Source: Eukaryota sp. GEM-RC1
Lineage: Eukaryota
Assembly (NCBI GenBank): GCA_040285855.1
Contig: JAUFOQ010000002.1
Location: 124,001 to 188,000 of the forward strand
DNA length: 64,000 bases
Reading direction: 5' to 3'
The translations under genes were made by a program, and so were the position numbers. Of this stretch, positions 7,596-64,000 are shown in pieces; position 1 is the stretch's first letter, and the number at the start of each line of letters is the position of its first letter. The notes under the pieces are model-generated. The model was not told the DNA's origin. It worked only from the letters and a program-made list of their open reading frames with translations, and searched no databases.

Positions 7596-7864
7596 TGTTG
7601 GAGGATTGTACTTTTGTAAATCGCCACGAATTTAAGAGAGGGCTCGACCAAAAATCAAAATTTCTGATCAGAAACTGAATGTGCTTTTCATTGGGCAAGA
7701 ATGTCACCCCTAGATTTGTTCCCCGTGTTTCAACTGACTAACATAGTGCACAACTACTTCTCAACTACACTCTTCACAACAATTAGTCTGAATCACTTAT
7801 TAGTCTGAATCTTCTTTTTTGACTGACAAGTTTTATTGACAACAACACTACAGTATTCATACAT

Positions 7865-9980: not shown

Positions 9981-9981
9981 C

Positions 9982-10539
9982 ATGTCCAACAGAAATTCTT
10001 GTTACGGTTGCCACAAAGTCTTGAGTCGCAAAACATCATTGGGCTATCACCTCAGAGTGTGCACAGAGCTGAATGACAGCCCTAACTACCGCTATCAGTG
10101 TGGTGTAGAAGGATGTGATTTCCTATCTTTCGGTATGTATTCATTTGTACTAACTACAGGAAAAGGACGCATGTGGGGTCACCTTGGCTTCCACCGTGTC
10201 ATCAAAGATCACGCTGACCTCCCACTTCACCAAAGAACCTGTATCGACCTCGATACAGGTCGGACATTGATGCATCCTTCTACCAAGCAAAAAGTCTACG
10301 AGTATAGATGCGAAGTGGAAGGATGTGAATACAAAGTAAGAGTATTGTACTTACTGCTGTTTTTACTTACTACAAAAATACACGAGATGTGGTATCACCT
10401 CGGCTTTTTCCCAAGCAATATCTACAAGAAACATGTTTCTTTGCGTGCTGATGAAAGAACGTGCATCAAGCTGGCTACGGGTGAGACAGTAGTCCATCGA
10501 ACTGCTTGGCTTGCTATGATGCAGAAGCAAATCCTATAA
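9982..10539 (+). CDS. C2H2-type zinc finger protein with an internal repeat
   Basis: CYGC-x12-H-x3-C finger plus two C-x4-C-x12-H repeats once intron 10133-10159 and insert 10342-10374 are removed. Confidence 0.7.
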   Translation: MSNRNSCYGCHKVLSRKTSLGYHLRVCTELNDSPNYRYQCGVEGCDFLSFGMYSFVLTTGKGRMWGHLGFHRVIKDHADLPLHQRTCIDLDTGRTLMHPSTKQKVYEYRCEVEGCEYKVRVLYLLLFLLTTKIHEMWYHLGFFPSNIYKKHVSLRADERTCIKLATGETVVHRTAWLAMMQKQIL

Positions 10540-11384: not shown

Positions 11385-11945
11385 TTTATGAGCAATCAGT
11401 AAATAACTAACAGACACTAACTAAAGCATCTAAACTATAATCCTTCTGTTTTGGAAATTGATCGTGAATTACAAGGATCAACAGTTGTGAAATCCATGAT
11501 AATTTCCTGACAAGCTAACCAAGGACCAATCAAATCACCACGACTTCTATCAACTTTTGGCTGATCAGAAAGATTAGCAAGTAAAGGTTCAATTTTTCCA
11601 TGAAAACCATTAGCCTTAAACATATCCAAACATGTATCCCGGATACTGTTGTGAATATTTGATTTAAAATGAATAAATTGATGACAGTCAACTAAATGAT
11701 GAAAATTTGAAGCCTTTGAACGACCACAAAGACATGGAGAATGCTTCAAAAGACCTAAAGGCCATAAACCTAACCTAAGTCTCATGTTTATAAGCCATTC
11801 ATGATCCTTAAGATTAAAACAAAATTTTCTTGGCAAACGAGAAACAAATGAAGACACAGTTCTTGAAGAAATACCATTCAAAAAAAGCACAAAAAGCGGG
11901 ACTCTTAGTCTTAGCCAAGCTAATACGGTTCTTAAAGTCCAAGCA
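11385..11945 (-). mobile_element. CRE-like non-LTR 3' fragment with internal deletion
   Basis: RLRLGL..CLC..HHLVDC..HNSIRD..RGD..MDFTTVD; its 3' end matches 27480-27570. Confidence 0.8.
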
Positions 11946-12624: not shown

Positions 12625-15600
12625 TCATACAGTTAATAAAGAAGAAAACATGCTAGCTTCATCATCATTCAGCAAACATGTTTTGAAATATTTAAAATTC
12701 AATAAGGTTTTACAACAATCTAAATCCAACTGACCAGGGCTCAAGAACGTAAACAAATGTGATAAAAACTTGGTACAAGAAAAGATATCCATTTCAGATG
12801 ATTTAAACTGTTTAACAACTTTGGAAAATTCCAACTTCAACTTGTTTACTTGAACTGTAGGTATTCTTCTTTCAAACACTGGATTTGAATTTAGAAAAAT
12901 GAAAAATTCAAATTCCATGGGAAGAGAATTCCAATAAATGAAGTTCCCAGAACATTTCGAGAATTTTGAAAAATCATAACTAGTACCAAGAATGTTTGAA
13001 AATAGTTCAAAATTTGAAATATCGAGATTATTAGTTAATCCAAGCAGGCTAATGCCATTCATTTGACTCAGAAGTGAATGATATGCCAACACTAATGATT
13101 TGTGTCCCCACATTGGGAGTGGTCGGTCAATCAAATGTGATTGATCGCTGACTTTTGACTGTTTAAAATCAACAATTTGAGCATCATTAAAAACCTTAAC
13201 ACAATCAGGAATTATGGTAATTGTGTCAAACTCATTTAATTGTTGACTTTTTGAAATTAAAACAAATGGAATAAAATTAAAAACAGGGAATAGCTTGAGT
13301 GCAACCTCCAGAGCTCTGTCAAAATCTTTTGAAAAAGTTAAAGCATAAACAGTAACATCAGAGAAGAATGATTGGACATCAAGAGGAAGGCAATTAATAA
13401 TAGAAAGAGCTGTGGTGGATAGAGTGGCAAAATTTTGGCAGAATCTAAATTGCTGTGGAAATAGATTTGAGAACGTCAATTGATTATTGTAGTTAAAAAT
13501 AAGTCGAGTAGTGATGAGAAACAGAATTTTTAAATTTTGATGATATCCTAGGGTAAATCCGTCAGTTGCTTGATAAAGAGGGAGTAGATAGTTAATAACC
13601 AATAATAAATATTTGATATTAAAACCGTCAATTTGGAACAGTCTTGTAGTTAGTGCGAGACAAATTTTACAATGAGAATCTGTAAACTTTGAGCTAGAAT
13701 TTAAAAATCTGTCCACTAAGTCGATATGTTCTTGGAAATTGAAAGAAAACAGAATGAAAGACAGTAATAAATCCGCATAAAAACTGGAATAACTTGAAAA
13801 TTCTTGCAAAAAGTTGAGGACGTCAAATTGGAATTAGTGAAATTGACTCTAATAGACGATACAACAAATAGATATTTTAAATAATCATTTTTGAAATTTT
13901 GAGGAAGATTAACAGTGTAGCTCAGCAGAGAGAGATTTTCAGTGTTGGTAACTTGGTTATTAATTAAATTTGATAGTTTTGATAATAATTCAACTAATTT
14001 CAAATATTTTCTACTCTTGGAAAGACATTTAGAAAGGACCAAACCATAGAGAGGAATCAAGCCAGGCTCACAATCAAAGTCAATCATCAATTCATTGACT
14101 TTGAGGGAATTTGACTCAGAAGAGATTAATGCAAACAGTCGAATAATTTTAAAAAGAGACACTATAAAATCAGTAGATTCGAGATCAGAATGTTCCAGAA
14201 TATTAGCAAATTCAGATTCATTGGCATGTGACTTACCAACAAGAAAGAGCAAATTTTTAAAACCTAATGAAAAATAACCATTATTGGAAACAAATTAGAG
14301 AAATAAACAGTCCAATCAAGTGATAATAATATTTTAAGGAATTAAAATTTTGAATAGATAAGGACAATCCAAGTGACAAAATTGGAAGGACAGCCACGTG
14401 ATCAATCAATCCTAAGACTGCCTTATAGCCAATTCTACAAATGAAGACTAGTAAATACTCAGCTGAAGGAGTGGAGAGTAAAAGCTCAGGATTGAATCCC
14501 ACAAACAAATTTTCAAAATATATTAAATTTTCAATATTCATACAATCCTGAAAATCGAGAATTGACGATCCCTTAGACAAAGAACATCCAAGTAACAAGG
14601 ATGAGCTCAACAAGGCTGAATTAGAGCTGAAATAGTAGTCATTAGATAGGGCTGAGTAATAGATACAAGCTCTAAGAACAAGTGGTGTCTCTTTAGAATA
14701 AGTGAAGTAAAACTGTTTGAGGGATTGGTACTTCAAATTAAAGTTTTCACGACAGGAAAGATCCAAGGAATAGCTGAAGGGAAGTTTAAAGGTTTTAAAC
14801 ACTTCAAACTGAGAAAACTGAGAATCTACGACAGATTCTAAATTAATTAGAATTTGTTTGAATAATTTAGCATTGATGGACTCATTCAGAGCTAATTGAG
14901 TGAGAGCCCAGTCACAAACAGCAAAACAAAAGAAATTAGGGGAATTATAGGATTTTGAATCCTTAATGCAGGCTAAAAGAGAATTGACAGAGGATTCGTC
15001 AATTATTCTAGCATTATTCAAATTTTGAATAAAAGAGGAAGATTCAGACGACTTGACCAAGGACAAAAAAGGAGAAGAATTGATTTCATTAGAGAAAGTG
15101 GAATTAAAAAAGTCTTGGAGAGATTCACTGTTGTTAACAATTTTAGAATTTTGGAAACTTTTAAGGAATCGATATAGTATGACCATGAATAATTGGTAAT
15201 GTTTTAAATTTCCAGAATACCTTTTGAAATAGTCTAAAGAGTGCTGGACAACTGTTCTCACCTGTGTCGGAGAAAACTTGTCAAATATTTTAATTTTTGA
15301 CACAATATTGATAAAAAGATCCGACTCATATCGAGAGAACAGAACAATTGATCTAACAAAGTAACTGTAATCATTGGAATTGCAGCAAAATTTTAAAAAA
15401 TTGAGAATTGACTTCGGATATAACAGACCTTGTAACAACTTACGATTTCGCAATTTTTGTTTAAATTGTCTAAAACAATTCAATATTTTGAGAGCAGAAG
15501 CAGACGTCTCATCGGTATCAGATTGTTGTGGGGTTTTTGATCTCTTTTCCTTCATTTTAGACTGTGACCTTGGAGCACTTTCCTGTTTCTTTTGGTTTTT

Positions 15601-24038: not shown

Positions 24039-24614
24039 TACTGACAAATTATTAATTTGGAATTCATTATTTAAAAGTAGAAGTTCGTTTTTGAAAAGTT
24101 TCCTGCAAATGTGTCTTTTTATGGTTTATCGACAATCAAACTATTTCTTTTCAATGACCGCCCGTGTTTCTCTTGTCATTAGTAGTAGTATAGTTTGATT
24201 AGACATTTGATTCTCTTTTCATTTAGCAGACTTTTAGACTTTCTTTCAAGAAAAGTATTTTCAGTTTCAATACATTTTTATAATTCAAATCTCAAGCATA
24301 ACAGCTCTTTCTGCAAGAAAGAGTTTAATTCACCAAGAAATTGATGTTTTATTATCTCTTTGCAGGTATTATAACAATAAGGTAGACCAGAATTTGCAGA
24401 TAGGAAATTTTAATTTTAAGGGTATTGAGTACTGGAGATTTAGGATTCCCGTGCACAGTACGTGTGTTGTCCGAGCACTAATTTACAGGTATAAAGAAAG
24501 GAAATTGATCACGTGTACATCTTTAATTTAAGTATTACGACTAATTTGGGTATCTTAAACAAACTGATCGACATACATTGCATTTTAACCTCTGATTTTC
24601 TTTTTCATTCAGAA

Positions 24615-26408
24615 TGAGGAAAATGCAATTTTAAACATTGATTTTAAAAATGCATTTAATTGTGTTTTAAGAACAACTATATCTGACGAACTTTCTGAAT
24701 TTTTGACTCAGTTGATTGAGTATTTTAATATTTTTTATGGTAAAGCGTCGAATTTAATTTTTGACAAGTTTGATATTAAATCAACTAGAGGCGTTAAGCA
24801 AGGTGATCCTTTTGGTCCTTTATTGTTTTGTCTCGCTCTGCAAAAATTATTTAAAATCTTACAATTAGATTTTCCAACTGTTAAAATTTGTGCTTATGCT
24901 GATGATTCTTCGCTGATCGCTCCAGATGACGTTCTCAAAAAGTGTTTTTCACGTTTCATTGAACTTTCTTTGAGTATTGGTTTGGCAATTAATTTTGATA
25001 AGTGTTTTCTTGTTGTTAAGTCTTCGAATGTTTCTAATCTTGGTTTTTGTAATATTCCTATCATCGATTATTCTACTCAATGTTTTCGTTTTCTTGTCAC
25101 ATTTTTGGGAAATTATGAGAAAATTCATTCAGAATTGGAGGGTTCACTAACTACCATTGAAGAAAAACTAAATCAAATATTATCTTTAGATGTGAGTAAA
25201 CCTGTTTCTTTTGCTATGCTTCAGGTTTGTTTTTCCGGGAAAATTAATCATTTTTTCCGTTCATTAGACTATTCCCTTACTGGAAACATTTGCCAAGAAA
25301 TTTAATTCTATTACATGTAGAACAAATTCTCTCTCTAACTTGGCTGAAATTGATGAGTCTAAGATTCATGTTCATGCTTTTTATTCATCTGAATTTGCAG
25401 GGGTAGGTTTCACCCATGCAAAAATCATTAGAAAATCTGCTCTTTTAGGAGGTGTTAAGAATTTTATGTTTGAATTTTTGAAACGGTTTCCCTTGGATGG
25501 AATCAATCTGTTGAATTCCAGTAATTGCCGTTGGATTCAATCTGCTAAAGATTTGGTATCACCCTTGGCTCCTGAACTGTGGAAATCTTTGTTCCATGCT
25601 CACTTAAAGGAGACTCCTTTAAAAGATATTTCATCTCTACCGTCTGCTGTATGTAAACTGCAAAATTAAATGACAAAGGAGTTTGAACTCTTGGACTTTG
25701 ATAATCGTATTAGCTTGGCTAAAACTAATAGTCCCGAGTTCGCTGCTTTTTTAATTGACCTTTGTAATAGTGGACCGTCTGGATTTATTTCTCAAATTCC
25801 TAAAGTGTACTGATTACATCTATCTGATGAAGCTTGGATGATCAATGTGCGTCTTCGTTTGGCTATTTGGCCTGCAAATTTATTAAAACTTGCTCTTGTG
25901 GAGCTATTGGTGTTTTTCGTCATTTAATTAATTCTCGTTATTCTATTCATCTACGTGCAGTAATTCATGATGGTGTACGTGATTCTTGTTATTCCATGTT
26001 TAAAGCACATGGTTTTCACACTAAAGTTGAACCAGTTTTGAATCATCTTTCAGAAAATGAATTTACTGATCAACAAAGAGGGGATCTCCATACTCCGTGG
26101 CTTAAATCGAGTCAATCATTAATGGATGTTACCACAGTAGATGTTTGTAACAAATCTTGTGTTAGTAGGATATTAGATTCTTCTTTTAATCCGTTAACAG
26201 CTGCTGAAAAGCTCAAACACTCCAAGTATGACTCTCAAGTAGAAGAATTAAAGAGAAACTCATACTCCAAATTTGTGTTTCAACCTTTTGCTGTTTCTCT
26301 TTTTGGATCTATTAGTCCTGCTGGCGATCAATTTTTCAAGGATTTCGAAGAACTGTGTAAAGAAAAGAAGCGAAAGTTTAGAATGGCTGAATGGAAAAAC
26401 CGTATAGT
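24615..26408 (+). mobile_element. 5'-truncated, inactivated CRE-like non-LTR retrotransposon (RT + REL endonuclease)
   Basis: IDFKNAFN, GVKQGDPFGPLLF, AYADD, then CSC..H..HDGVRD..RGD..DVTTVD; stops and frameshifts. Confidence 0.88.
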
Positions 26409-26439
26409 TGTGGGAGAAAATTTATGGAACAAAAACACA

Positions 26440-27570
26440 AAAATAAACACAAATACTAAAACTCAATATCATTAAAGCAACAATCATTGCCATTAAAACT
26501 CACATCAGCTTTTTCTTCATAAAAAACACTGAGAGCTAATAGAGCTTTTGAAATCATGATGGGAATTGTTTTAAATATTGTAAAAACAATACGATTCAAC
26601 CCAAATTTGAAACCGTATATTGTTATCCATACATCGGAATATGCCTTTCTATTTCTCTCGATTAATTGAGAAATTGTACATGTTTGGTGTGATCCAATAC
26701 ATATTTTGATTGAGCTTAGCAACATATTTGGAATACAAATCAATTTTATCCTTTTCTGCTGTTACTAGGTGGTTGAAACCTTTTGAAGTTAGGCTGCTAA
26801 CATGAATTTGAGCACATGGATCTAATGTTATAGCATCAAGAATAGTTTGACTGATATGAGAAAAAGCATTATTCGGCACCCAATAAGGTAACCTTCCTAC
26901 ATAACTATGAAATTGTAAAAACAAACAAATAATGCTAAAATTAAATCCAAACGACTTCATCACCACCCGGTAAAAGATTAATTTGTATCCTGGATACCTG
27001 TTTGGATACGTTTAAAGCTAACGGTTTTCATGGAAAAATTAAACCTTTACTTGCTAATCTTTCTGATCAGCCAAAAGATGATAGAAACTGTGATAATTTG
27101 ATTGGTCTTTGGTTATCTTGTCAGGAAATTATCATGAATTTCACAACTGTTGATCTTTGTAATTCAAGATCAATTTGCAAAAAAATTAATGATTTTTCTG
27201 TTCTTGAAGTGGCTGAATAATTAATTCAGTTAAACCAATTAACCAATTGAATGTTGACCGGTACAATTCTTTTGTGTGTCAACCGTTTGCGATGTCGATA
27301 TACAGTAATATTGGACCAGCTGCACAAGGTTTTTTAACTTCCTTTGGTAAATTGTGTTCTGAGTACTGTAAAGTTTTCAATCAAAATTTTTGGTTGAGTA
27401 GGTTAACGTTTGGGTTGTTTCGTTCAATGCACAGATATTTTAATTCAATTTTAGGTAAGTTGTTCGGTGATGGACAGAAGGATTATAGTTTAGATGCTTT
27501 AGTTAGTGTCTGTTAGTTATTAACTTCTGCAAATGCATTATTTTACTGATTGATCATAAATCCCGATTTT
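26440..27570. mobile_element. Patchwork of non-LTR 3' fragments from several subfamilies in both orientations
   Basis: 26456-26600(-) resembles 19660-19810. 26630-26690 and 26870-26980(-) resemble 1090-1290. 26985-27570(+) resembles 11385-11650. Confidence 0.75.
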
Positions 27571-29407: not shown

Positions 29408-30178
29408 CAGTGGTGTTAAATAAATAGAATACACCGTAAAAATGTCCGTAAATACGAAACGCCAACATCGGGAAAATTTCCGCACGTACGGAAAGAAAAC
29501 AATGTCCGGATCGTATATACAGAATGGTTGACTCCGTATTAATACTGTTGCCACTTTTAGTGGCGTGTCATTGGTTGTTGTTGGTCTGATACAATTGTTA
29601 GCAATGTATATTGGTAATATGGATATCTTCTTCTAGGATGATATCTATCATAATAAATTTACTTTACCCCAACTTCATGACTTCACCCGCTAAACCAACA
29701 GTAATTACTGTGGATTCCTCCACGGTGACTCCCCATACTATAGTACATATACCTCCTTCCATGGAGCAAACACATATACCTGAAGATTCCGTCTCTTCAG
29801 CCTATAAAGTTCATCCAATGGGTTCCAATCCCATACAAAGCCAGAGTCCCGCTCTCTCCGCTTTCCCTTTTGATCAAGGTTTGACGGATTGTATATAACC
29901 AATCCTAAAGACCCTAGGTTAGAAACTTTGAGACCTCCACCTCCATTCGTTGGAATCCTGGAACCGTCCTCCGCTCCTCAATCTGAAGATGAGAATCCAA
30001 CAACAGAATTCTCCATCCTTCTGAAAGAGAGCATGAGAACTCGTCCAAAGAAGAAGATTCAAGGACTTGCTTCAAAAAGAGATCCAAGGACAAAACACCT
30101 GAGCAGAGTTTTGGTCAGCCAGGTCCGTTACAACCACCTGTCCTCTCTTCCAAGCCTGGCTTAGGTTTCTCACTACCT

Positions 30179-31363
30179 TTGCCTAACATAGATCCTGTCC
30201 CAGAACTCCCACATTCTCCGGACATCTTGAGTCCCCCAACAACTCATGGTAGTTCTCCTTGTACGGATTATACCTTTCCAGTTACTGGGAACAACACAAG
30301 ATCTGTATTATCTACTGATATATATGGTTCTTTTATGGCAGTTGATAACCCCGACCTTACTGAAGCTAGAAGATTGGACATGCGTTCAAAATTCAATCCA
30401 GACCTTCGTTCTTCCGTGGTTGAAACAACTACGCCTAAAGACTCAGAAACCAGAGCCCCAGAATTGTTTCCCATATACAATCATGACGGACGCTTGGTAG
30501 GATACGCTCCTAGAATAATTCCTGGTTTTATACCAGCATCCTCTGTGGATACCTCTTGTAGAGTGCAAACTGCTCCTTTACACTTGTCCGATCTCCACGA
30601 GTCGACAATCAGTACCTCCTACAGTGCCCTCGAAAGCGCAGGAGTCCAACGCACTAATCTTGTCCTACGTCCTAACGAACCCGACAAAATCGACACAAGT
30701 TCTCAAGATTCTATTTTGTCATTTGTTCTCGATTTCACTGGCTTCTTCAAGAAACCACGTAGATTAGATGGCAGTTCCATCGCCCACTCTAAAGATTTTC
30801 TTTTAGGTTTCCCACATCATGAACTTGATCTAGTCCGGGAAGCCATGGGTGAAGTCGACGTTACCCGACTCCAAGAATTTGTTCCTCTTGTAACCTCGTA
30901 CGGTTGGAAGATCAGCGGAGTCTGGGACGGTGCCAACAACAGCACATTATGGATGGTTATTCTATTGAAAACCCAACATAGCAACATGATTGATGCTACC
31001 AATGCCATAAACCGAATAAACATGGATTGGTCTATTGCCAACGATGATTTTCGTTGGTCCAATTACCTAGAGAGGTTTCAGAAAGCTGCGTACAAATGCT
31101 CCTTCATTTGTGAAGACGTCACGAACCCCACTTTCGGCCATTCTATTCGTATCAAAGAATTGATGAAAATCTTCTTAATACACATGGGATCCGCTCAACT
31201 ATGGTTCACTTTCAAGTCCAAAATCGAAGAAGGAAAATATGAAAACTTTTCTCAATTTTTCAAAGATCTCCGACCTGCATACATCACGTGGTGTACCAGT
31301 ATTGGTTCTTCAATCGAGCTTAAGAATAAAGCTCGGTTAGGTGCCTCGGAAGGAATTGCCTAA
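30179..31363 (+). CDS. gag: Gag-like ORF (upstream part broken by frameshifts from about 29677)
   Basis: Position in the element; Pro/Ser-rich N-terminus. Confidence 0.65.
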   Translation: MPNIDPVPELPHSPDILSPPTTHGSSPCTDYTFPVTGNNTRSVLSTDIYGSFMAVDNPDLTEARRLDMRSKFNPDLRSSVVETTTPKDSETRAPELFPIYNHDGRLVGYAPRIIPGFIPASSVDTSCRVQTAPLHLSDLHESTISTSYSALESAGVQRTNLVLRPNEPDKIDTSSQDSILSFVLDFTGFFKKPRRLDGSSIAHSKDFLLGFPHHELDLVREAMGEVDVTRLQEFVPLVTSYGWKISGVWDGANNSTLWMVILLKTQHSNMIDATNAINRINMDWSIANDDFRWSNYLERFQKAAYKCSFICEDVTNPTFGHSIRIKELMKIFLIHMGSAQLWFTFKSKIEEGKYENFSQFFKDLRPAYITWCTSIGSSIELKNKARLGASEGIA

Positions 31364-34300
31364 GGAATTAAAAAACCTCTGGCTTTCCAAAACCAAGCAT
31401 ACCTCTATCCATCACCCAGCCAATCCGAGTGGTTCTAAACGAAGAAGTAGTGAGACTCACCACACCGGTCCCAATCCACATAAGAAGATGTCTCGTTCCA
31501 AGCCTATCACAACGAACACCGGTGGCACTCCCAAATGTGCTTACTGTGGAAGCACCAAACATGTGTTATCTGAATGCACCGATGACGCATGTACCCGCAG
31601 TAAACTCTCCAAAGAAGAAAGAGCTGCACGCCGTGAACAAGGTGATGTCCCAGAACGAAAACCTGTCACCAAACCAGCCAAACCTAGATCTTTCCATAGT
31701 TCAAATAAAAAATCTAGTTACTCCGAGCAACATAATACTCCTAGTATCAACAACCTTAGCCAGTTGCAATCTATTTCAAACCCTCTGGGAAATATCAAAA
31801 CTAATCCCCAGATAAATTCCCTATCTGCTACACACGATCCCACTCCTGTGCCCAGTCCCGTGAAGACTCCTTCATCAAACGATTTTATCCACATATTCTT
31901 TGAGATCAATGGTATCAGTCTCGAAGGCATGTTCGATAGTGGTGCAGCCCTCTCTGTTATCACAAAAGATCTAGCAGATCAATGTTCAATGTTAGTCACA
32001 GACGACTTCATTCACTTCAAATCAGCCAATAATTCTGTTAGCCAAACCCTTGGTCGTGCCTCGGGTACTTTATCATTCCGTCTCGGTAGCATAGCTAACT
32101 TAGTTCATATCCAATACAGTCTCCCAATTATCCCTGGATGCAACAAAATGTTAATTGGTCTTGACCTTTTGGAGCGATTAGGGCTACGAACAGACACTGG
32201 ATTAGTCATCCAGTTAGATAAAGAACATAAAGTCCTACTGACAGACGATAGCGAGTTCGATCATAAACTCGTGTCAATTAGTTCACTTTCCAGTACCAAC
32301 CAACGTCCATTTGATGATTGGTGCGAATACGTTTCAACAACAGGATGTATGATCAACCTCGATTGCACACAACGAACTAAAACCATGCTTAACCTTTTTA
32401 TGGAATTTAAGGAAGTATTCGCAGAAGTTCCTCACCGTGATGGCATAGACTGTGCCCCAATGAGTATCCCATTCCACAACGAATCAGTCATAGTGAGAAA
32501 ACCTCCTCGAAGACTCAACCCAGTCAAACAAAGAATCGCTGAAGAGATCTTCGACGAACTCGTCCGTGCAGACTTTGCTGAATATACTGAACCCGTGTTC
32601 AGCTCCCCAATTGTCCTAGTCATTTACCCAGATCACCGCAAACCACGCCTGACTGGAGACTTCAGTGGCTCTGGCGGAGTCAACGACAACTCCATCCCGG
32701 TAGAAGCTCAGCTACCCAGAATATCGGAAGTGATTGAATTTCTTTCACAAGCAAAATTCATTGCCACCTTTGATTTACCAAAAGCCTTCTGGCAATTGAA
32801 AGTCACTGAAAAGGACCGCATCAAGACAACCTTAAGCATTCACGGGAAGTCTATAAAATTCAAGAGAGCCTGCTTTGGCCTCAAGAACGTTCCAGCCATT
32901 TTCCAAAACATCATGGTGGAAATATTTCAAGCCGAAGGGATATTCATCTACATAGATGATATCATTGTCATTGGCAACACGTTTGACCAATTCATTGAGA
33001 GAATACATTTCGTCCTAACCCAAAGTCATTCTCGTAGAGTCAACATTGGCCTACGTAAGACCAAAGTGGTTACCGACCAACATGAAATTCAAGTCTTGGG
33101 AACGAAATTCATGAACAGAAAACGATCAATTGCCCAATCAAGGATTGATGCCCTCATCAACCTTCCTAAACCAACCAACGTCAAGGAAGTGAGGAGCCTG
33201 ATCGGTTCCATCAACTTCATTCGTGACTGGTTACCAGGCATATCTGACCTGATACAACCAATCATCAACTTGATTAAGCAAGACTCCAAGTCAAAAGGCC
33301 CGCCCAAATCCATCAAATGGAATGACTCACATGATGCCTTACTTAACCAAATCAAACACCTGATCGCTAGCAATATCCCTCTGGCGCTGCCAGATCCCAA
33401 TAAACACATCCTAATAAGTTGTGATGCTTCAGATCTTGCAGTTGGAGGCACAGTTTGGATGGAAATTCCACCTAACTCCCCTACTGGTACCCCGCTTAGG
33501 GACAGAAAGGTTTTGCCTCTCTCCTTCTATAGCAAAATACTCTCTCCTTCACAACAACGATGGTCTACAATGCAGAAAGAACTGTATGCCATCCTCTTGA
33601 TTTTAACTGAATCAACCTTATCAAACTACTTATTGACTCGCCAAATTACCGTCTTTACAGACCACAAGAACTTGGCATACCTGATATCAGCACCCGAGAA
33701 GAACCGAATCGTCAAACGATGGATTCCCGTTCTATCTGAATTCCACATCGATGTAGTTCACACACCCGGTGAAGACAATCACTGGGCAGACATGTTATCC
33801 AGATTCATACCTAAAAGAGAACCTCATGACGAAGTCGACCAAGTGAACGCTCTGCGAGATGAAAGTTCAATACAGTTATTGTCCGGATTTTCACTCGACT
33901 TCACGGAAGATGACATGGAGTTCACTCAATACGATACCAATTCCATACTTAACCTGACACCGGTCGTCTTAGATGACCTTCCGATGTTCAGTTCATGGAT
34001 TTCCAAAATCCGACTGGAACAATTGACCGCCATAGAAAACAATGACCCATTACTATCTAACGTCTCAATTGACCCCAATAGTCAACTATACCTTTCCAAT
34101 AAAGGTAAAATAATCATACCAGAAGCTCTTAGGAATACTATCCTTTACAACCTTCACGGGCTAACACACGCCGGACACCCCAGTGCCAAAGACAGTCTCG
34201 ACCGTCTAGCCAAATCTGATTTCGTATGGCCTGGAATGCACAAAGACATGAAACGACATGTTGCCACGTGCCCCAGCTGTCAAAAAACAGCTCCTGTACC

Positions 34301-35486
34301 TAGAAAACAACTGCCATCCACCGGCAGCCTATGGGCAGACAAACCATTCGCTAAGATGCATGTAGACACAATTGGACCTCTACCTGCCGACAACTTGGAA
34401 AACAAATACCTTGTAGTGTTCATTGACGCTTTCACAAGATACTCCATACTGGTACCCTTGATTGACCTAAACGCTAATGAAACAGCTAATGCCTTAATCT
34501 GGAACGTTTGTTCCATCTTCGGCATTCCCTATAAGATTCACTCCGATAATGACCCTGAGTTCGCTAACGCCACTTTTATCGCCACATGTAATCTTCTAGA
34601 TATCGAAGTTTCAAAATCAATACCCATGCTCTCCCAAAGCAACGGTCTAGTCGAAAGACGACATCGTGACATCTTGCAATCCTTACGCAAGATACTAGTA
34701 GACTTTAACGATTTCGACAACTGGAGTTCTCACATTCCTCTTGTCCAATTAATAGTCAATACTAATCGTAGTAGAGTTACCGGCTTTACTCCCTTCGAAC
34801 TTATGTTTGGAACAAACACCGACCCTCGCGGTGACCCTAGTCGCTTATTAACATTTCTTAAATCTTCACAAACCTCAGAATTAGCCTTCCTCACGGATCT
34901 GAATTTGAAACTAAACAGACTGCAAACAAAAAGAGAAAAAGCAGAGTCATCTCAGCTTTCAATCCAACCTAAGACTTCCAGGTCGAAGAACCCCTTCCGC
35001 CTTGGAGACCTAGCCCTTAGAAGCACTAAGAAAGATAAACTCCATGGACGATACGAAGGACCCTTCAAGGTAATTGGTATTCCGTCAGATTCCTCACTGA
35101 CACTCAAGAACCTCATAACAGGTCATGAGTCCCGTTCCTCAGTAGCACTCTGCAAACCATATCACTCTGACTTCGGTCCAGATAATGAGTTCCACAAGTT
35201 TGTTGCTGCCAACGATTCCGAAGAATTGATTGTTGAGAAAATTCTCGATCAATCAATTTCCAATTCCCAAGTCGTGTGTTCAGTTTTATGGCATGATGGA
35301 AGTACTACCCAGGAACCATTAGCCAATGTTAAGAACACCAAGGCCTACTCCACTTTTATTAAAGACAACCCCAATCTCCGGGTCCAAAACAAGTCTTATA
35401 AATCCAATATATCGATTGCATCCCCTTTATCTCGTCGCACCCGATCCAGATCGAACTCGACTTCTAAGAAGAAAAGGCAGTGTTAG
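31341..35486 (+). CDS. pol: Gag-Pol polyprotein: CCHC, protease, RT, RNase H, integrase, GPY/F, chromodomain
   Basis: CAYCGSTKHVLSEC, FDSGA, YIDD, CDASD, HHCC, HVD..SDN..GLVER, YEGPFKV, VEKILD..VLW..EPLANV. Confidence 0.95.
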   Translation: MPRKELPKELKNLWLSKTKHTSIHHPANPSGSKRRSSETHHTGPNPHKKMSRSKPITTNTGGTPKCAYCGSTKHVLSECTDDACTRSKLSKEERAARREQGDVPERKPVTKPAKPRSFHSSNKKSSYSEQHNTPSINNLSQLQSISNPLGNIKTNPQINSLSATHDPTPVPSPVKTPSSNDFIHIFFEINGISLEGMFDSGAALSVITKDLADQCSMLVTDDFIHFKSANNSVSQTLGRASGTLSFRLGSIANLVHIQYSLPIIPGCNKMLIGLDLLERLGLRTDTGLVIQLDKEHKVLLTDDSEFDHKLVSISSLSSTNQRPFDDWCEYVSTTGCMINLDCTQRTKTMLNLFMEFKEVFAEVPHRDGIDCAPMSIPFHNESVIVRKPPRRLNPVKQRIAEEIFDELVRADFAEYTEPVFSSPIVLVIYPDHRKPRLTGDFSGSGGVNDNSIPVEAQLPRISEVIEFLSQAKFIATFDLPKAFWQLKVTEKDRIKTTLSIHGKSIKFKRACFGLKNVPAIFQNIMVEIFQAEGIFIYIDDIIVIGNTFDQFIERIHFVLTQSHSRRVNIGLRKTKVVTDQHEIQVLGTKFMNRKRSIAQSRIDALINLPKPTNVKEVRSLIGSINFIRDWLPGISDLIQPIINLIKQDSKSKGPPKSIKWNDSHDALLNQIKHLIASNIPLALPDPNKHILISCDASDLAVGGTVWMEIPPNSPTGTPLRDRKVLPLSFYSKILSPSQQRWSTMQKELYAILLILTESTLSNYLLTRQITVFTDHKNLAYLISAPEKNRIVKRWIPVLSEFHIDVVHTPGEDNHWADMLSRFIPKREPHDEVDQVNALRDESSIQLLSGFSLDFTEDDMEFTQYDTNSILNLTPVVLDDLPMFSSWISKIRLEQLTAIENNDPLLSNVSIDPNSQLYLSNKGKIIIPEALRNTILYNLHGLTHAGHPSAKDSLDRLAKSDFVWPGMHKDMKRHVATCPSCQKTAPVPRKQLPSTGSLWADKPFAKMHVDTIGPLPADNLENKYLVVFIDAFTRYSILVPLIDLNANETANALIWNVCSIFGIPYKIHSDNDPEFANATFIATCNLLDIEVSKSIPMLSQSNGLVERRHRDILQSLRKILVDFNDFDNWSSHIPLVQLIVNTNRSRVTGFTPFELMFGTNTDPRGDPSRLLTFLKSSQTSELAFLTDLNLKLNRLQTKREKAESSQLSIQPKTSRSKNPFRLGDLALRSTKKDKLHGRYEGPFKVIGIPSDSSLTLKNLITGHESRSSVALCKPYHSDFGPDNEFHKFVAANDSEELIVEKILDQSISNSQVVCSVLWHDGSTTQEPLANVKNTKAYSTFIKDNPNLRVQNKSYKSNISIASPLSRRTRSRSNSTSKKKRQC

Positions 35487-36440
35487 CAATGTATATTAGT
35501 AATATGGATATCTTCTTCTAGGATGATATCTATCATAATAAATTTACTTTACCCCAACTTCATGACTTCACCCGCTAAACCAACACAATTTAATTATTAA
35601 TCTGGAACAAGAGTTTTTGGAACTGCAACAAACAACTGTCTCACGTTCAACCTATCCTTTAATCCGCCAACTTCGAGCGATGCCAAGTGATTGTTTTCAA
35701 AGGCAAAATAACCATATGGTCCACCGCATATGATTGCCACCATTGTTTGAAGTGGACGTATCTTGAACGCCAAATGTTTTTTCTGTACAATAGAAGTTAA
35801 TAGTCTGCTAAAACAGTGCAAAAGACTTTGAAAAAGGGTTGACCAGAAGATTGTTATGACACACATTCAGATTGAGGATTAGTTCTTTCCGTTAGACTGT
35901 CATTTTACAAGGTTTCAAAGAAAATCTTTTATCTCGTAAAGATACATAAAGTCTAAAGACGTAAACAAAATTAACAATACTATTCCATGACATGGCCTTG
36001 AACCCTAAAGAGTTTCTTCAAAATTCCATCGAAATACTGGAAACATTGAACGAAATACAGAAAAACGCGACGATTTCTCCAAAAAAATAATGTTAAACTT
36101 CTTGCCAAATTCACAACACAATTGATTCAAAGATGACAAAAACGTTTGAGTTGCAATAAGAAGTTTTTTAATCTTAAGACATATTCTTCCGTATTTTGCA
36201 TATTTATACTCAATTGTTGTCGAATCTGTAAATACGGAAACACTTACGATATGATATTTTACACACGGAAAGTGTGAAATGGTGGCGTATTCTGAGTTAA
36301 TATTTTTCAACATCACTGCTTCAAAGCATCCATATAATTAGAACACTTTCGCTGTTCAGTCTTTTCAAGGTGACCATTAGAATCATTCAAAATGGAGTCC
36401 TTGTAGACTTTTGCCAACGATAGATGTACAATGTATTAAT

Positions 36441-54067: not shown

Positions 54068-57000
54068 TTAATAGTTTACACAGAGATCATTTGAACTATG
54101 TTTGCTTTTAAATCTAAGTCTATGCCAAGAACTAACAGAGCAAGACTCAATGATTAGTTCCGAGAGTTTATGTAACGACAAGAGCGGGAACAAATCCTTC
54201 ACTTTTGTTTTACTAATGTTCAACCTTTGGAGTGAACCAAGATTAGTCAAGGACTGAACAGATGTTATTCTGGTGTTGACAAGAGACAGTTCAGTCAAAT
54301 TAGAGAGATTTTGAAGAGGTGAGATATTTGCTACCCTTGTGTTTGAAAGACATAAAACTTTGAGGCTTGTGAGACCTTTAAGTGGACTAATGTCAACAAT
54401 ATCAGAATTGTTGGAGAGATACAATATCTCCAAATTCAAAGCACTAATTGGAACTAAATTTGAAACTCTCGTGAACTGGGCGTTTAACTCTTTTAAGTTG
54501 CAACAATACTGAAGAGGGGAGATGTCACGAACACAAACATGGCGCAAATTGAGATGATGTAGCGATGCAAGTGCTTGCTCAGTTATCGGAAGGTTCTCAG
54601 TGAGTTTAAAACGGGTTTTCAGAATGTGTTGCAGTGTGGGGTCAATGGGCACGGAAATTGGAGTTCCAGGAGATTGTTGTTGCGTAAGAGTTGCAAATGA
54701 AGGAACAAGTTCAGAGGAAAATGGCTGGATCTGTACAGGTTCTAACGGAACAACTGGGATCTCCTCGATTGAAGGATTTGGGTCTTCAGGCAACGTAAAG
54801 ACAGGAACATCAGAAGCAGCAGTGTTAAAGTGACGGAGGACCAAATACCGTTCCTTAAAGCGTGACAAGCCATTCATTTCAACAAGTTGTTCTAGTAGGT
54901 CATAACAGGTGTTCTTTAATTCCTCCACGAAGCTGAATTGAACAAAGTTCAGCAAGGCTTCACACATATCTGTAAGTTCATCTTCAGAGAAGAGGGTTAA
55001 ATCTGCCTCTGATAGCAAGTCAATAGCATAAGTGCCCAACGATGAGTTGAATGGGTTGAGGTAATTGAAAACTGGTTTGTTGTCTAACTGCGCCTGAAGA
55101 ACAGACACAACATCGGCCATCGATGGGCGCTCTAAAGGTTGAATAGTTAAACATGATTGAAGAGTTCTGACTAACGAACAAGGAATGGTTGACGGAAGAG
55201 GTGGAATATTGCCTTCATCAAGAGCTTGAATAATAAGTGCATCTCTAGAAGACCTTGAATCTAAATGACTCCACAGAGACTGACCAGAGAATACATAAAC
55301 ACAAATCAAAGCAAACGAGAAGACATCGGTCGATGCTGAATGAATAGCAACATCTTTGACCTGCTCAGGAGAAGCAAAACGAGGAGTAATGATGCGATTG
55401 TGTAGCAAACTAACTGAAGTATTGGAACTAGCAACATCTTTACCAGCACCCCAATCTATTATCACAGGTGCTTTATCTCTGAACAGAATGTTTTCAGGTT
55501 TTAAATCGCGATGAATAACGAAGTTTTCATGGCATATACACAGAGTGTTACCAATTTCGAGAAGAGTTCGAAGTTTTTGATTGTCCTTCATAGATGAAAC
55601 TCGATCAGTTAATGTTTCCTCAGATAGTCTTTCCATAACTATACCGAAATAAGCCAATTTTCTTTTGATCACCTTGCAAACACCAAAATAACGTGGAAGA
55701 CCAGGGAGGTCAATAATTTTCCTAATGGATGATATAATGTTGAACTCTTTGTTTAGAGCTACAGGGAATAGGTCATCAACATCTCCTTTGAAGAATTTCA
55801 CAGCAACCGATACAAGTCCATATTCTCCAAACACTACAAAGCCTTGGCCCCCCATAATGGTTTCACTCCAATCCAACTCCAATTCACTTTCACTGATGAC
55901 TAGAGGAGTCATTTGAGGACTGTCATCATTTAATAGCTCTCTGGAAAGCGTTAAGTTAGACAACTCCTCTTGAATGATATTTCTAAAAGATTGCTCAGAT
56001 TGTTGTTGATTTTCTATGGAAACTGACCGCAACTTAAGATCCAACTGACCTTCAAGATCCTGCAACCAATCTCTTGCTGAATCCCTGTCCATTGACGTGA
56101 TGGACTCTATCTGTTGAGAGGAAACCTTCTGCAATGAAGCACATGCGTTTGCTGTGAATCCAGTGTTGATTTCCAAAAGTAAGTCATTGAGCTCCTGATG
56201 ACATGCTTTAAAGTCTTCATTGAATCTTGGGTTAATTGTGTTGAAAACTACATACGATGAGCTGAACAAATTCCTCTTAAGCCACGATGCGCTGGAATAC
56301 CGCTTTAAGACCGTCAGAATCGTGGTACAACAACTTTCAAATGCGCAAAGAGAATCTTTCATTGCTATTAACTGACTACTAGACGATTCTCTTGCAAATG
56401 GACCCCATATAATGTTGGCTAATCGTAGTACTCTGGCAGATAACGCTGACGCTTGATACCGTGAGAATTTAGCCGTTCTAGTGAGGTTTATGATAGAAGC
56501 AACTAAGTAAGCGCCTTGGGACAATAATGGTATTGCTTGGAGTGACTTTATATAAGGTAAAACAGTAGAAACGAGTGGATCAAGAAACGAAGGAGTGACT
56601 GTCGATATGTCCAGATTAATTTTTTGGAAATGTTGACAAACTTCAGAAATCAATCGACAATCTAATTGTTCAAGTCTAAGCAAAGGAATTTGTGTACCAT
56701 TATCATTTGTGGAATTCATAGGAAAGGTTGCACTGAAATCCAGAGTAAACATATCGTCATTCATCATGTTATTGATGTGAACTTCTAATTGATTGAGAAA
56801 TCTAGAATAAGGAACATACAAAGAAGACGTACATGTCATACTGGTCGTGATGTTTAGATATCTGTTGAGTAGTAGCTGAGCACACTTGTTCAAACTTTGT
56901 CAAAGTACATTTCACTGACTCAGTATTTAAAAGAGTAAAGTCAGCAGAGATGGTGACAAAAACGTGTTCTAAGAAAGAAAAGAGACACGAAAAGGAAGGA

Positions 57001-57215: not shown

Positions 57216-57429
57216 ATTTGATGATGATAGAGAGTGTTGCGAAATTTGGTTATCAAAGATCTACATGTACTAGTACCTACTTACAGTGTTCTTACACAGA
57301 ACTAAGACACAGAGCAACTGATCGGTTGCAACGAGATATCATGATAAGGCTCTGTCAAAGTCGTATTCTTCAACAATAATCATTTACTTATCCATTTTAG
57401 AAGAGTCGAAGTACAGTACGTGTACTGGT

Positions 57430-59722
57430 CACTTTTGCTATAATCTTGACAGAACTGACTATAATCTTGACAACTTCTTTTCACTTTCCCTCAAATATCT
57501 CTCTTTATTATTCATAAATATGAGCTTAAATCAAAACATCGTCTTAAATGAGGAGGACCCTACAATCAATCCAACAACACCAGTTCCAAATAATTTGATG
57601 TCTTTTGAATCCTATGAAGATGCTGTTAACTCTCTGCAAAAGTGGGCCGGTGATAAAGGTTTCTCTCTCCGTACCGATGGTGGTAATGAAGGCCGTGGAC
57701 GTGTTTATCTTTTATGCTCCTGTGCTTCTGTCCATAGACCTGGTCGTGTTAATGAGAACAATGACATTGCTCGACGTCGCTCAAAGACAAGAGTTAGGCA
57801 ATGTGCTTTTAAGCTGTACCTTAAACTTCAACGACGAACTTTGGAAGGTTGAATCAAGAAGTATAGTACACAAACATATGCTAGCAGCTGATAAAACTTC
57901 TACTTCTGAGTTGTATCACTCAATCAATTGGAAAGACTCATGTGTGCCCCGCTATCCACCACTCCGAAAAAAAATCCTGTTGCAACTCAGGAAAGAAGCA
58001 AGAACCAATAATGAAGCAGTTTTATTAACAGCCAAAGATATTTCAAATATCCGCTATAAAACGAAATTGGAATCACAGGAGGGCCGAGGGCCAATTGACA
58101 GTTTGATTGAAAAAACGCGGACGGGTACATCTTTCGAGTTAAGTCTGATGCCGAAAACCGACTTGAAGCCCTGTTTATTGTAAACCGGGAGGTACTGCCG
58201 ATTGCCAGAAGATTTCGGTATGTGTTCTGTCTTGACAGTACTTATAAGACAAATACATTTGGTATGCCAATGTTTCATATGGTTGGTTTTACGTGTTTAA
58301 ATTCATCGTTCAGTGCTGCCTGTGTCTTTATGGCGAAAGAAACTGAAGAATACTATCTTTGGACCTTGGAACAATTTAAAGATGTAATTAACATTAATCC
58401 AGGAGTTTTTCTTACAGATAAAGAAAAGGCATTGAATAATGCTGTCAGGCAAGTGTTTCCTACATCCGGTCACGTTTTATGCTTGTTCCATATCGTTCAA
58501 AATTTAATCCAAATTAAGAACGCTAAAGGAATTTCTGATCCAGCATGGAAAATATTTATGGAACATTTTTACTCCGTAATTCAAAGTGAAGCATTAGAAG
58601 AATTTTGTTGGAATTTGGACGTGATGACAGGCAAATATGAAAATGACCGAGAATGTGGTGATGCCTTCATCTATTTAATTAACAATTGGTTCGATATGAA
58701 GGAAAGTTTCTGTTATTACAATATTGATCAATTCACTCACTTTGAAACTTACACGAACAATCGAGCCGAGTCCGCCCACAATGCACTAAAATCCGGAGAT
58801 CGAATGTACAAAAGAGACTTGGAGAGTGCTATGGAAAATGTTATGGCTACTATGGAGCATCAAGTAATCGACTTAAGAAGAAACATTGATGTTGATAAGC
58901 AGAGAGTCGACCGAGAACTGATGAACACCCCTTTATTTGTGAACGTAATTCGACACGTGTCATCTTTTGCTTTGTTGAAGGTTTTACAAATTATTGCTTT
59001 TAGCCAAACGAATCATGTGGATTCAGTATATTCAGGTAGAACTGAGAGAATAACTGGAATTCCATGTATTCACAGCAGTAAAAGAACACAAAGACTTTCC
59101 AAAGATATGTTTCATCGACAGTGGTGGTTAGATGAGGAAGCAGAACCGAGTTTGACTATAATCTTGACAAATGACTAAAATCTTGACAAAAATGACTATG
59201 CTCTTGACAAAAATGACTAGAATCTTGACAGCTTCTCATTCTTGCTAGAATCTTGACAGAACTGACTAGATTCTTGACAAGTTGCTTTCTGATCCATTTT
59301 AGTGATATCATCATTTCTTCGTCACTGCCTCACTGTCTCCCTCTTTATGTTCTGGACCTGGGAGTTTCTGCTTTCGTTATCACATATACTTTAGTAGTTC
59401 AAATTCTACATTCTACAGTTCACTATTGCTCTAATGCTCACAATCACAATCTTTCTTGAATTTCTTACATCTTTGACAATGACTTCTGCTATCATGTCCT
59501 TCCTGGCGACACACTCTACATTTCCTTGCGGTTTTCTTCTTTTGAGTTCTTATCACCCTACCATTCTCCTCATGAACTTTTGGACCTTCGTATCGATGGG
59601 CAGACCTTGCTAAACCCACATTGGCAGCCTCTTCTAACCGTACCTTGTCTGCTGCTGACTCAGTAGACCGCCATTGATTGAACAGTTCTTCAACAGGATT
59701 AGAAATTTGACCTGGTTCTGCT
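57430..59722 (+). mobile_element. Rearranged Mutator/MULE element, tandem unit 1 (2293 bp)
   Basis: FAR1-like N-terminus; LDSTYKTN, FLTDKE, LCLFH, TNNRAESAH (DDE); ends built of about 21-bp TGACTATAATCTTGACA repeats; 3' part inverted. Confidence 0.92.
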
Positions 59723-62015
59723 CACTTTTGCTATAATCTTGACAGAACTGACTATAATCTTGACAACTTCTTTTCACTTTCCCTCAAATATCTCTCTTTA
59801 TTATTCATAAATATGAGCTTAAATCAAAACATCGTCTTAAATGAGGAGGACCCTACAATCAATATAACAACACCAGTTCCAAATAATTTGATGTCTTTTG
59901 AATCCTATGAAGATGCTGTTAACTCTCTGCAAAAGTGGGCCGGTGATAAAGGTTTCTCTCTCCGTACCGATGGTGGTAATGAAGGCCGTGGACGTGTTTA
60001 TCTTTTATGCTTTTGTGCTTCTGTCCATAGACCTGGTCGTGTTAATGAGAACAATGACATTGTTCGACGTCGCTCAAAGACAAGAGTTAGGCAATGTGCT
60101 TTTAAGCTGTACCTTAAACTTCAACGACGAACTTTGGAAGGTTGAATCAAGAAGTATAGTACACAACCATATGCTAGCAGCTGATAAAACTTCTACTTCT
60201 GAGTTGTATCACTCAATCAATTGGAAAGACTCATGTGTGCCCCGCTATCCACCACTCCGAAAAAAATCCTGTTGCAACTCAGGAAAGAAGCAAGAACCAA
60301 TAATGAAGCAGTTTTATTAACAGCCAAAGATATTTCAAATATCCGCTATAAAACGAAATTGGAATCACAGGAGGGCCGAGGGCCAATTGACAGTTTGATT
60401 GAAAAAAACGCGGACGGGTACATCTTTCGAGTTAAGTCTGATGCCGAAAACCGACTTGAAGCCCTGTTTATTGTAAACCGGGAGGTACTGCCGATTGCCA
60501 GAAGATTTCGGTGTGTGTTCTGTCTTGACAGTACTTATAAGACAAATACATTTGGTATGCCAATGTTTCATATGGTTGGTTTTACGTGTTTAAATTCATC
60601 GTTCAGTGCTGCCTGTGTCTTTATGGCGAAAGAAACTGAAGAATACTACCTTTGGACCTTGGAACAATTTAAAGATGTAATTAACATTAATCCAGGAGTT
60701 TTTCTTACAGATAAAGAAAAGGCATTGAATAATGCTGTCAGGCAAGTGTTTCCTACATCCGGTCACGTTTTATGCTTGTTCCATATCGTTCAAAATTTAA
60801 TCCAAATTAAGAACGCTAAAGGAATTTCTGATCCAGCATGGAAAATATTTATGGAACATTTTTACTCCGTAATTCAAAGTGAAGCATTAGAAGAATTTTG
60901 TTGGAATTTGGACGTGATGACAGGCAAATATGAAAATGACCGAGAATGTGGTGATGCCTTCATCTATTTAATTAACAATTGGTTCGATATGAAGGAAAGT
61001 TTCTGTTATTACAATATTGATCAATTCACTCACTTTGAAACTTACACGAACAATCGAGCCGAGTCCGCCCACAATGCACTAAAATCCGGAGATCGAATGT
61101 ACAAAAGAGACTTGGAGAGTGCTATGGAAAATGTTATGGCTACTATGGAGCATCAAGTAATCGACTTAAGAAGAAACATTGATGTTGATAAGCAGAGAGT
61201 CGACCGAGAACTGATGAACACCCCTTTATTTGTGAACGTAATTCGACACGTGTCATCTTTTGCTTTGTTGAAGGTTTTACAAATTATTGCTTTTAGCCAA
61301 ACGAATCATGTGGATTCAGTATATTCAGGTAGAACTGAGAGAATAACTGGAATTCCATGTATTCACAGCAGTAAAAGAACACAAAGACTTTCCAAAGATA
61401 TGTTTCATCGACAGTGGTGGTTAGATGAGGAAGCAGAACCGAGTTTGACTATAATCTTGACAAATGACTAAAATCTTGACAAAAATGACTATGCTCTTGA
61501 CAAAAATGACTAGAATCTTGACAGCTTCTCATTCTTGCTAGAATCTTGACAGAACTGACTAGATTCTTGACAAGTTGCTTTCTGATCCATTTTAGTGATA
61601 TCATCATTTCTTCGTCACTGCCTCACTGTCTCCCTCTTTATGTTCTGGACCTGGGAGTTTCTGCTTTCGTTATCACATATACTTTAGTAGTTCAAATTCT
61701 ACATTCTACAGTTCACTATTGCTCTAATGCTCACAATCACAATCTTTCTTGAATTTCTTACATCTTTGACAATGACTTCTGCTATCATGTCCTTCCTGGC
61801 GACACACTCTACATTTCCTTGCGGTTTTCTTCTTTTGAGTTCTTATCACCCTACCATTCTCCTCATGAACTTTTGGACCTTCGTATCGATGGGCAGACCT
61901 TGCTAAACCCACATTGGCAGCCTCTTCTAACCGTACCTTGTCTGCTGCTGACTCAGTAGACCGCCATTGATTGAACAGTTCTTCAACAGGATTAGAAATT
62001 TGACCTGGTTCTGCT
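59723..62015 (+). mobile_element. Rearranged MULE, tandem unit 2
   Basis: Repeat of unit 1 at +2293. Confidence 0.92.
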
Positions 62016-64000
62016 CACTTTTGCTATAATCTTGACAGAACTGACTATAATCTTGACAACTTCTTTTCACTTTCCCTCAAATATCTCTCTTTATTATTCA
62101 TAAATATGAGCTTAAATCAAAACATCGTCTTAAATGAGGAGGACCCTACAATCAATATAACAACACCAGTTCCAAATAATTTGATGTCTTTTGAATCCTA
62201 TGAAGATGCTGTTAACTCTCTGCAAAAGTGGGCCGGTGATAAAGGTTTCTCTCTCCGTACCGATGGTGGTAATGAAGGCCGTGGACGTGTTTATCTTTTA
62301 TGCTTTTGTGCTTCTGTCCATAGACCTGGTCGTGTTAATGAGAACAATGACATTGTTCGACGTCGCTCAAAGACAAGAGTTAGGCAATGTGCTTTTAAGC
62401 TGTACCTTAAACTTCAACGACGAACTTTGGAAGGTTGAATCAAGAAGTATAGTACACAACCATATGCTAGCAGCTGATAAAACTTCTACTTCTGAGTTGT
62501 ATCACTCAATCAATTGGAAAGACTCATGTGTGCCCCGCTATCCACCACTCCGAAAAAAATCCTGTTGCAACTCAGGAAAGAAGCAAGAACCAATAATGAA
62601 GCAGTTTTATTAACAGCCAAAGATATTTCAAATATCCGCTATAAAACGAAATTGGAATCACAGGAGGGCCAAGGGCCAATTGACAGTTTGATTGAAAAAA
62701 CGCGGACGGGTACATCTTTCGAGTTAAGTCTGATGCCGAAAACCGACTTGAAGCCCTGTTTATTGTAAACCGGGAGGTACTGCCGATTGCCAGAAGATTT
62801 CGGTATGTGTTCTGTCTTGACAGTACTTATAAGACAAATACATTTGGTATGCCAATGTTTCATATGGTTGGTTTTACGTGTTTAAATTCATCGTTCAGTG
62901 CTGCCTGTGTCTTTATGGCGAAAGAAACTGAAGAATACTATCTTTGGACCTTGGAACAATTTAAAGATGTAATTAACATTAATCCAGGAGTTTTTCTTAC
63001 AGATAAAGAAAAGGCATTGAATAATGCTGTCAGGCAAGTGTTTCCTACATCCGGTCACGTTTTATGCTTGTTCCATATCGTTCAAAATTTAATCCAAATT
63101 AAGAACGCTAAAGGAATTTCTGATCCAGCATGGAAAATATTTATGGAACATTTTTACTCCGTAATTCAAAGTGAAGCATTCGAAGAATTTTGTTGGAATT
63201 TGGACGTGATGACAGGCAAATATGAAAATGACCGAGAATGTGGTGATGCCTTCATCTATTTAATTAACAATTGGTTCGATATGAAGGAAAGTTTCTGTTA
63301 TTACAATATTGATCAATTCACTCACTTTGAAACTTACACGAACAATCGAGCCGAGTCCGCCCACAATGCACTAAAATCCGGAGATCGAATGTACAAAAGA
63401 GACTTGGAGAGTGCTATGGAAAATGTTATGGCTACTATGGAGCATCAAGTAATCGACTTAAGAAGAAACATTGATGTTGATAAGCAGAGAGTCGACCGAG
63501 AACTGATGAACACCCCTTTATTTGTGAACGTAATTCGACACGTGTCATCTTTTGCTTTGTTGAAGGTTTTACAAATTATTGCTTTTAGCCAAACGAATCA
63601 TGTGGATTCAGTATATTCAGGTAGAACTGAGAGAATAACTGGAATTCCATGTATTCACAGCAGTAAAAGAACACAAAGACTTTCCAAAGATATGTTTCAT
63701 CGACAGTGGTGGTTAGATGAGGAAGCAGAACCGAGTTTGACTATAATCTTGACAAAAATGACTAAAATCTTGACAAAAATGACTATGCTCTTGACAAAAA
63801 TGACTAGAATCTTGACAGCTTCTCATTCTTGCTAGAATCTTGACAGAACTGACTAGATTCTTGACAAGTTGCTTTCTGATCCATTTTAGTGATATCATCA
63901 TTTCTTCGTCACTGCCTCACTGTCTCCCTCTTTATGTTCTGGACCTGGGAGTTTCTGCTTTCGTTATCACATATACTTTAGTAGTTCAAATTCTACATTC
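62016..64000 (+). mobile_element. Rearranged MULE, tandem unit 3 (truncated by window end)
   Basis: Repeat of unit 2 at +2293. Confidence 0.92.

Follow-up and report, generated by a model that had tools for sequence, protein, structure and literature searches.

A tandem array bearing the signature of MULE self-insertion in Eukaryota sp. GEM-RC1

Auto-integration, the insertion of a transposon into itself, is common for Sleeping Beauty (SB) and piggyBac (PMC3952818) and is treated as a dead end. Products of the inversion type keep both ends in changed orientation, duplicate the internal target and form a single circle. They have been described for Tc1/mariner and piggyBac elements on engineered plasmids, where the free circles are called suicidal, and inversion circles of Tn10 are cited in the same paper (PMC3952818). 

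Arrays that repeat a whole DNA transposon head to tail have been described in Drosophila for Bari1, hobo, P and R1. Their units are collinear elements set end to end; where two meet there is a host duplication, or the TIRs are deleted. Whether they arose by rolling circle or from dimers by unequal exchange is debated (PMC5932611). Three routes to such tandems are distinguished, namely LTR recombination, rolling circle and double insertion; the rolling-circle origin of Bari1-type arrays is argued from indirect signs, and the means of circularization is unclear (PMC5932611). A 2025 review presents seven schemes in the first part of its mechanisms section, none of them with self-insertion, and the word "auto-integration" is absent from its main text (PMC12628747). 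Among the papers listed in our literature search, none reported inversion-type auto-integration units arrayed in a chromosome; the older genetics of P, Mu and Tn10 was thinly covered, and a precedent may exist. Circular forms of Mu occur in maize.

Ends from two molecules can also react together, duplicating adjoining sequence, as in hybrid element insertion of P, sister chromatid transposition of Ac/Ds (PMC3744419) and the reaction proposed for the MULE VANDAL21 (PMC12312487). VANDAL21 also forms circles (PMC10462705). Generally, MULEs have TIRs of 14–500 bp and target duplications of 8–11 bp (PMC6446971). The MULE Muta1 of Aedes aegypti makes 8–9 bp duplications and bears a short motif at its termini, with tandem repeats in subterminal position; a non-autonomous derivative carries unequal numbers of repeats, 3 and 7 (PMC5499845).

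We describe an array that compares with each of these systems in part. It occupies the last 6.6 kb of the window (the whole stretch analysed, 64,000 nucleotides of contig JAUFOQ010000002.1) and comprises 2.87 head-to-tail units of 2293 bp each. Its features are as follows, read from the sequence unless another basis is given.

57421 to 57429, forward strand: host 9-mer, which may be the left copy of a duplicated host target; the right copy would lie beyond 64000.
57430 to 59722, forward strand: unit 1, 2293 bp.
57430 to 57472, forward strand: left end; its 22-bp TIR is imperfect, and two 17-mers lie in subterminal position (57435, 57456).
57520 to 57852, forward strand: transposase N-terminus, 110 aa, truncated by frameshift in all three units; possibly FAR1-like, from below-cutoff matches in intact relatives.
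58111 to 59147, forward strand: MULE DDE core of unit 1, as far as the inversion junction; the unit-2 equivalent (60203–61468) scores against PF10551.
59139 to 59147, forward strand: 9-bp self-target T, first copy.
59148 to 59279, forward strand: right end read inward, with TIR and six subterminal 17-mers, oriented like the left end.
59431 to 59713, reverse strand: inverted transposase C-terminus ending in a zinc-knuckle-like motif; based on identity to P0002, P0015 and P0026.
59714 to 59722, reverse strand: 9-bp self-target, inverted copy, adjoining the next left end.
59723 to 62015, forward strand: unit 2, 2293 bp; target 61432–61440, right end from 61441, inverted target 62007–62015.
62016 to 64000, forward strand: unit 3, ending at the window edge; target 63724–63732, right end from 63733.

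The left-end 21-mer is present at all three unit starts (57430, 59723 and 62016), and the right-end 21-mer lies at 59148, 61441 and 63733. The 9-bp self-target T, AGCAGAACC, lies at 59139, 61432 and 63724, and its inverse at 59714 and 62007. Units 1 and 2 are both 2293 bp long and unit 3 extends for 1985 bp up to the window end; identity to unit 1 is 99.56% for unit 2 and 99.45% for unit 3. With the collinear element written as LE-A-T-B-RE, where LE and RE are the left and right ends, each unit runs LE, A, T, then RE and B reverse-complemented, T reverse-complemented and the next LE. LE and RE are co-oriented within the unit and inverted relative to each other in the non-flipped arrangement. 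An earlier note on this DNA had proposed this geometry of array and inversion, and its coordinates and motifs were reproduced to the base.

The inverted duplication of T is exactly 9 bp, without extension at either side, and lies inside the 8–11 bp range for MULEs (PMC6446971). A 9-base inverted match at two fixed junctions has a chance of ~6e-6, and a chance repeat was rejected on this ground. We note that a duplication of 8 bp also fits the junctions, as host flank and self flank both have a thymine immediately before the left tip; the 9-bp register alone gives both ends an equal distance from tip to subterminal motif.

The geometry of the unit is that of a MULE auto-integration inversion product. 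A unit is a rotation of the inversion circle simulated from its own parts and shows all three features of the inversion products in PMC3952818, which bears out the match to inversion-type auto-integration made in the earlier note. Compared with the SB and piggyBac products, this is a natural MULE with a 9-bp target, in tandem and attached to host DNA in the assembly, and no free circle was seen here. Compared with the Drosophila arrays, which are likewise head to tail, the unit contains an inversion, has both of its ends intact and duplicates a 9-mer of the element's own. As described for P, Ac/Ds and VANDAL21, two-molecule reactions act on host sequence beside an element or on a pair of adjacent elements, rather than on a self-target with tandem growth to follow (PMC3744419, PMC12312487). 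At least four junctions are evidenced here (three sets in the window and one in the P0001 record), against 32–130 for Bari1 (PMC5932611). The term "satellite" overstates four units, although the three in the window are homogeneous at 99.4–99.6%.

The core of unit 2 (60203–61468) matched the full PF10551 model (MULE DDE) at 94.7 bits against a cutoff of 27.6 (E = 4.8e-27), confirming the MULE identity read earlier from the sequence. It carries D, D, CxxH and E motifs, which we take, by motif, to be the catalytic residues. The "proper TIRs" of the earlier reading are present but imperfect: the two tips match at 18 of 22 bases, and the subterminal 17-mer has two copies at the left end and six at the right. 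Set against Muta1 by description, the array element is alike in general plan and differs in its 17-bp repeat, present in 2 and 6 copies, and its poorly matching tips (PMC5499845).

A scripted flip of the inverted segment gave a 2284-bp element in which the frame continues across the junction to the CEH-stop. The proposal that flipping restores one ORF holds in that respect but fails upstream, where two frame-breaking lesions in the 5' quarter are common to all three units and the first ORF stops at 110 aa. Relative to P0017 and P0018, about 5 and about 7 bases (estimated from protein) are missing there in all three units; introns were ruled out as the cause of the frame breaks, as the relatives have extra residues at these places. 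The array copy is non-autonomous, its transposase ORF being broken by the two shared frameshifts plus the inversion. P0017 and P0018 matched FAR1 below cutoff (E = 1.7e-4 and 1.3e-3), and the window's broken ORF pieces gave no Pfam match for an N-terminal zinc domain. Since P0023 (three accessions) ends like the array's 110-aa ORF, it and the array probably form a small non-autonomous subfamily moved in trans. At the other end of the protein, the minus-strand peptide closes with C-X2-C-X4-H-X5-C. The usual CCHC knuckle is one residue shorter in its spacing, and the motif had no Pfam match at E 0.1; the "CCHC knuckle" claimed for it is better called knuckle-like.

Relatives of the transposase allow the inverted segment to be compared with its native form. 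A homologue search returned 10 proteins, three at 95–100% identity and the others at 25–37%, and cluster look-ups spread the close family records over contigs of seven different sizes. Nine family records reach the target region. Six of these (P0002, P0013, P0015, P0024, P0025 and P0026) are non-inverted and run straight from QWW into GQIS, and three (P0001, P0012 and P0014) turn into right-end sequence at the target; P0012 and P0014 are the window's own array proteins. The minus-strand peptide is 95.8% identical to P0002 (292–386), 96.8% to P0015 (294–388) and 91.6% to P0026. It is thus the native C-terminus, and the non-inverted copies for which a search had been proposed exist; the contrary case raised in the earlier note, with no native copy and a peptide other than the C-terminus, fails because six of the nine records are non-inverted.

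P0001 is an inversion-junction protein that is not encoded in the window and differs from unit 3 by one residue. It is recorded on a contig of length 3,723,599, the same figure as for the window's own proteins, and represents a fourth inversion junction, most likely in the next array unit, with a second site also possible. The target variant of the array (AEP) occurs in none of the six non-inverted records, and no final non-inverted copy carrying it was found among them; gene calls for the subfamily are patchy, with P0011 the sole recorded downstream ORF outside the array. An exact 39-base pattern search for other holders found no stretch in metagenome contigs, none of 33 matches from a P0015 pattern search was confirmed, and four of six window ORF versions were without match in an exact protein look-up.

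At the target (59139–59147), the six non-inverted records read E/D-E-E-E-S (or QS) and the array reads E-E-A-E-P, with both residue changes inside the 9 bp. These changes may have brought the site closer to a preferred target. The host 9-mer (57421–57429) matches the self-target before the second left end at six of nine positions, as do 56 of 4570 element 9-mers (1.2%). This agreement modestly favours a single enzyme that prefers certain targets, and it would be expected under the circle reading set out below if one transposase made both insertions. On the host side, a kinase fused to C-terminal leucine-rich repeats is encoded at 54068–56899 on the reverse strand, and the first left end lies 591 bases upstream of its first Met.

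The array units are the only copies of the element within the 64-kb window, which also contains other repeats. A Ty3/gypsy-like LTR retrotransposon, identified by eye from motifs, lies at 29596–35585; it has 105-bp LTRs that are 99% alike, a 456-aa ORF and an unbroken 1381-aa ORF, and it looks recent. Five related fragments (602–1291, 5099–5998, 7606–7952, 11398–11943 and 24348–27525) are 76–98% alike and encode reverse-transcriptase-like and restriction-like endonuclease-like peptides, and by eye they probably belong to a non-LTR retrotransposon family. There is a 403-bp direct duplication (9585–9985 and 12736–13138, 94.5%), a 115-bp tandem pair (8533–8761, 97%) and a 57-bp inverted pair (1980–2229, 96%) around ~250 bp that is possibly a small non-autonomous element. 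An ORF at 6337–7077 on the reverse strand resembles iron-containing alcohol dehydrogenase, again by eye from motifs.

The explanation we favour, at a probability just under even, is that an excised auto-integration circle entered a resident copy of the subfamily, by copying or recombination and with several units going in together. Transposase supplied in trans by an intact copy would have excised the element, and both ends would then have attacked a 9-bp target inside the same element, on opposite strands. According to simulation and standard DDE chemistry, the product would be one covalently closed strand of 2293 nt, with the other strand in two pieces, each stopping at a 9-base gap with its 3'-OH exposed. 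This self-insertion chemistry should be open to MULEs, since Muta1 is cleaved in a way that frees the 3'-OH of the element end (PMC5499845). An unrepaired circle of this kind would be a primed rolling-circle template, in the cell or in a tube, and through the 1.7 kb of homology in the left part either the circle or its concatemer could enter a resident copy. A simulated entry by way of the 3' part gave the wrong order and was rejected. Once formed, a unit would be immobile by ordinary cut-and-paste, because both of its ends point the same way.

A route that needs no free circle is possible, although we consider it less probable than the circle. Here, after replication, the transposase would pair ends from two chromatids, a right end from one and a left end from its sister or homologue, and insert them together into the target inside the first copy. 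One step would give flank, unit, native copy and flank, and unequal exchange between the 1.7-kb direct repeats would add further units. The simulated product is letter-identical to that of circle plus recombination; it consists of a unit and a native copy, and the left part of the array alone is visible in the window. This route requires one transposition event and no surviving episome. There are precedents for two-molecule end reactions in P and Ac/Ds (PMC3744419), with VANDAL21 a proposed case (PMC12312487), and PMC5932611 argues for the expansion of transposon dimers by unequal exchange. However, the array would have needed at least two more expansions from a two-repeat start that is presumably as prone to collapse. 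With identical sisters, moreover, the changes shared by units 2 and 3 must postdate insertion and predate expansion, an objection that a homologue donor removes. We favour the excised circle mainly because a rolling circle gives four or more units in one event: a single such event would probably be enough, and a two-repeat start would have to expand repeatedly. Every route other than an artefact predicts that the array ends in a last non-inverted copy, its right end and then TGTACTGGT. Since the simulated products are letter-identical, the final native copy, a repeated host 9-mer and free 2293-bp circles cannot separate the two routes, and free circles can also pop out of an array.

It is unlikely, in our view, that the array was made in the tube or by the assembler, though the chemistry of the circle lends itself to this. 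With its closed strand and pair of 3' primers, a free, unrepaired circle could have been amplified by strand displacement and joined through the shared 1.7 kb. The polymerase phi29 is strand-displacing and turns a circle into a concatemer by rolling-circle synthesis. Alternatively, the assembler could have looped through a nested inverted self-insertion, which in simulation carries both junctions, one per strand. Three homopolymer differences among the units and a forward-to-reverse junction of fold-back type in P0011 are in line with an artefact. Against it, the units are non-identical, where an unrolled graph loop would give identical ones; the 3.7-Mb contig, with apparently hundreds of genes on both sides of P0001 judging by accession order, suggests that the assembly passed through; and long reads would span a single 2.3-kb element. 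Bases 1–57000 also speak against an artefact: inverted matches of at least 95% number only two there (57 and 52 bp), and no break interrupts the ORFs of 1381, 1248 and 943 aa. Far less probable still is an inversion in which transposase had no part and which arose through template switching, or through repair at a short inverted repeat, before the unit was duplicated. Short-homology inversions are common in general, but here both breakpoints fall on element tips, the duplication of 9 bp is within the 8–11 bp MULE range, and within the inverted piece the right end occupies the inner side instead of the outer one. Two further structures were considered and rejected. Double insertion at one host site does not fit a junction 9-mer that is element sequence or a unit that is inverted internally, and a nested inverted insertion, taken as the literal structure, holds no tandem units in simulation.

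Differences among the units were few, with eight substitution events and three homopolymer differences. Substitutions were polarized on relatives where the residue changes. Two dinucleotide changes, both derived, are common to units 2 and 3 and absent from unit 1 and from three dispersed P0023 copies; each unit has a further two changes of its own. The four differences of unit 1 cluster in the first 445 bp (post-hoc chance ~0.045), and the three P0023 copies show no change over the same 110 residues. The inverted part is without substitutions, which is not significant (0.14). The shared changes would fit a common template for the inner units and a different, flank-attached start, although the signal is weak, and consensus error inside the array, to which the homopolymer differences point, is a plausible source of the differences.

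P0011, which lies outside the window, is a near-identical subfamily protein with a rearrangement of its own. It matches 60572–61366 on the forward strand and then 61059–61042 on the reverse strand, where its last five residues and stop are read from the element's minus strand; the joint itself contains no TIR. In a control, none of 4651 host words of that form occurred in the unit. The joint could be a fold-back of the amplification type; it could also reflect an inverted repeat that was collapsed, or splicing in the gene model. A further reading, somewhat less probable than the excised circle itself, is that the circle served as a rolling-circle template and re-entered as a multimer more than once, with P0011 a second, collapsed product.

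The signature of MULE self-insertion in tandem is real at this locus, and the route from circle to satellite is plausible and unproven, as the array alone does not prove a circular intermediate. The array has no evident host function. What its unit preserves is the chemical signature of the reaction that formed it. If the array is real, it is a record of natural MULE self-insertion with a 9-bp stagger, and self-targeted transposition can seed tandem DNA. Re-entry of a circle multimer, if true, would add a fourth to the routes by which DNA transposons become tandem DNA. Co-oriented intact ends together with an inverted duplication of an internal target form a signature that should be recognizable in any assembly, in particular those from long reads.
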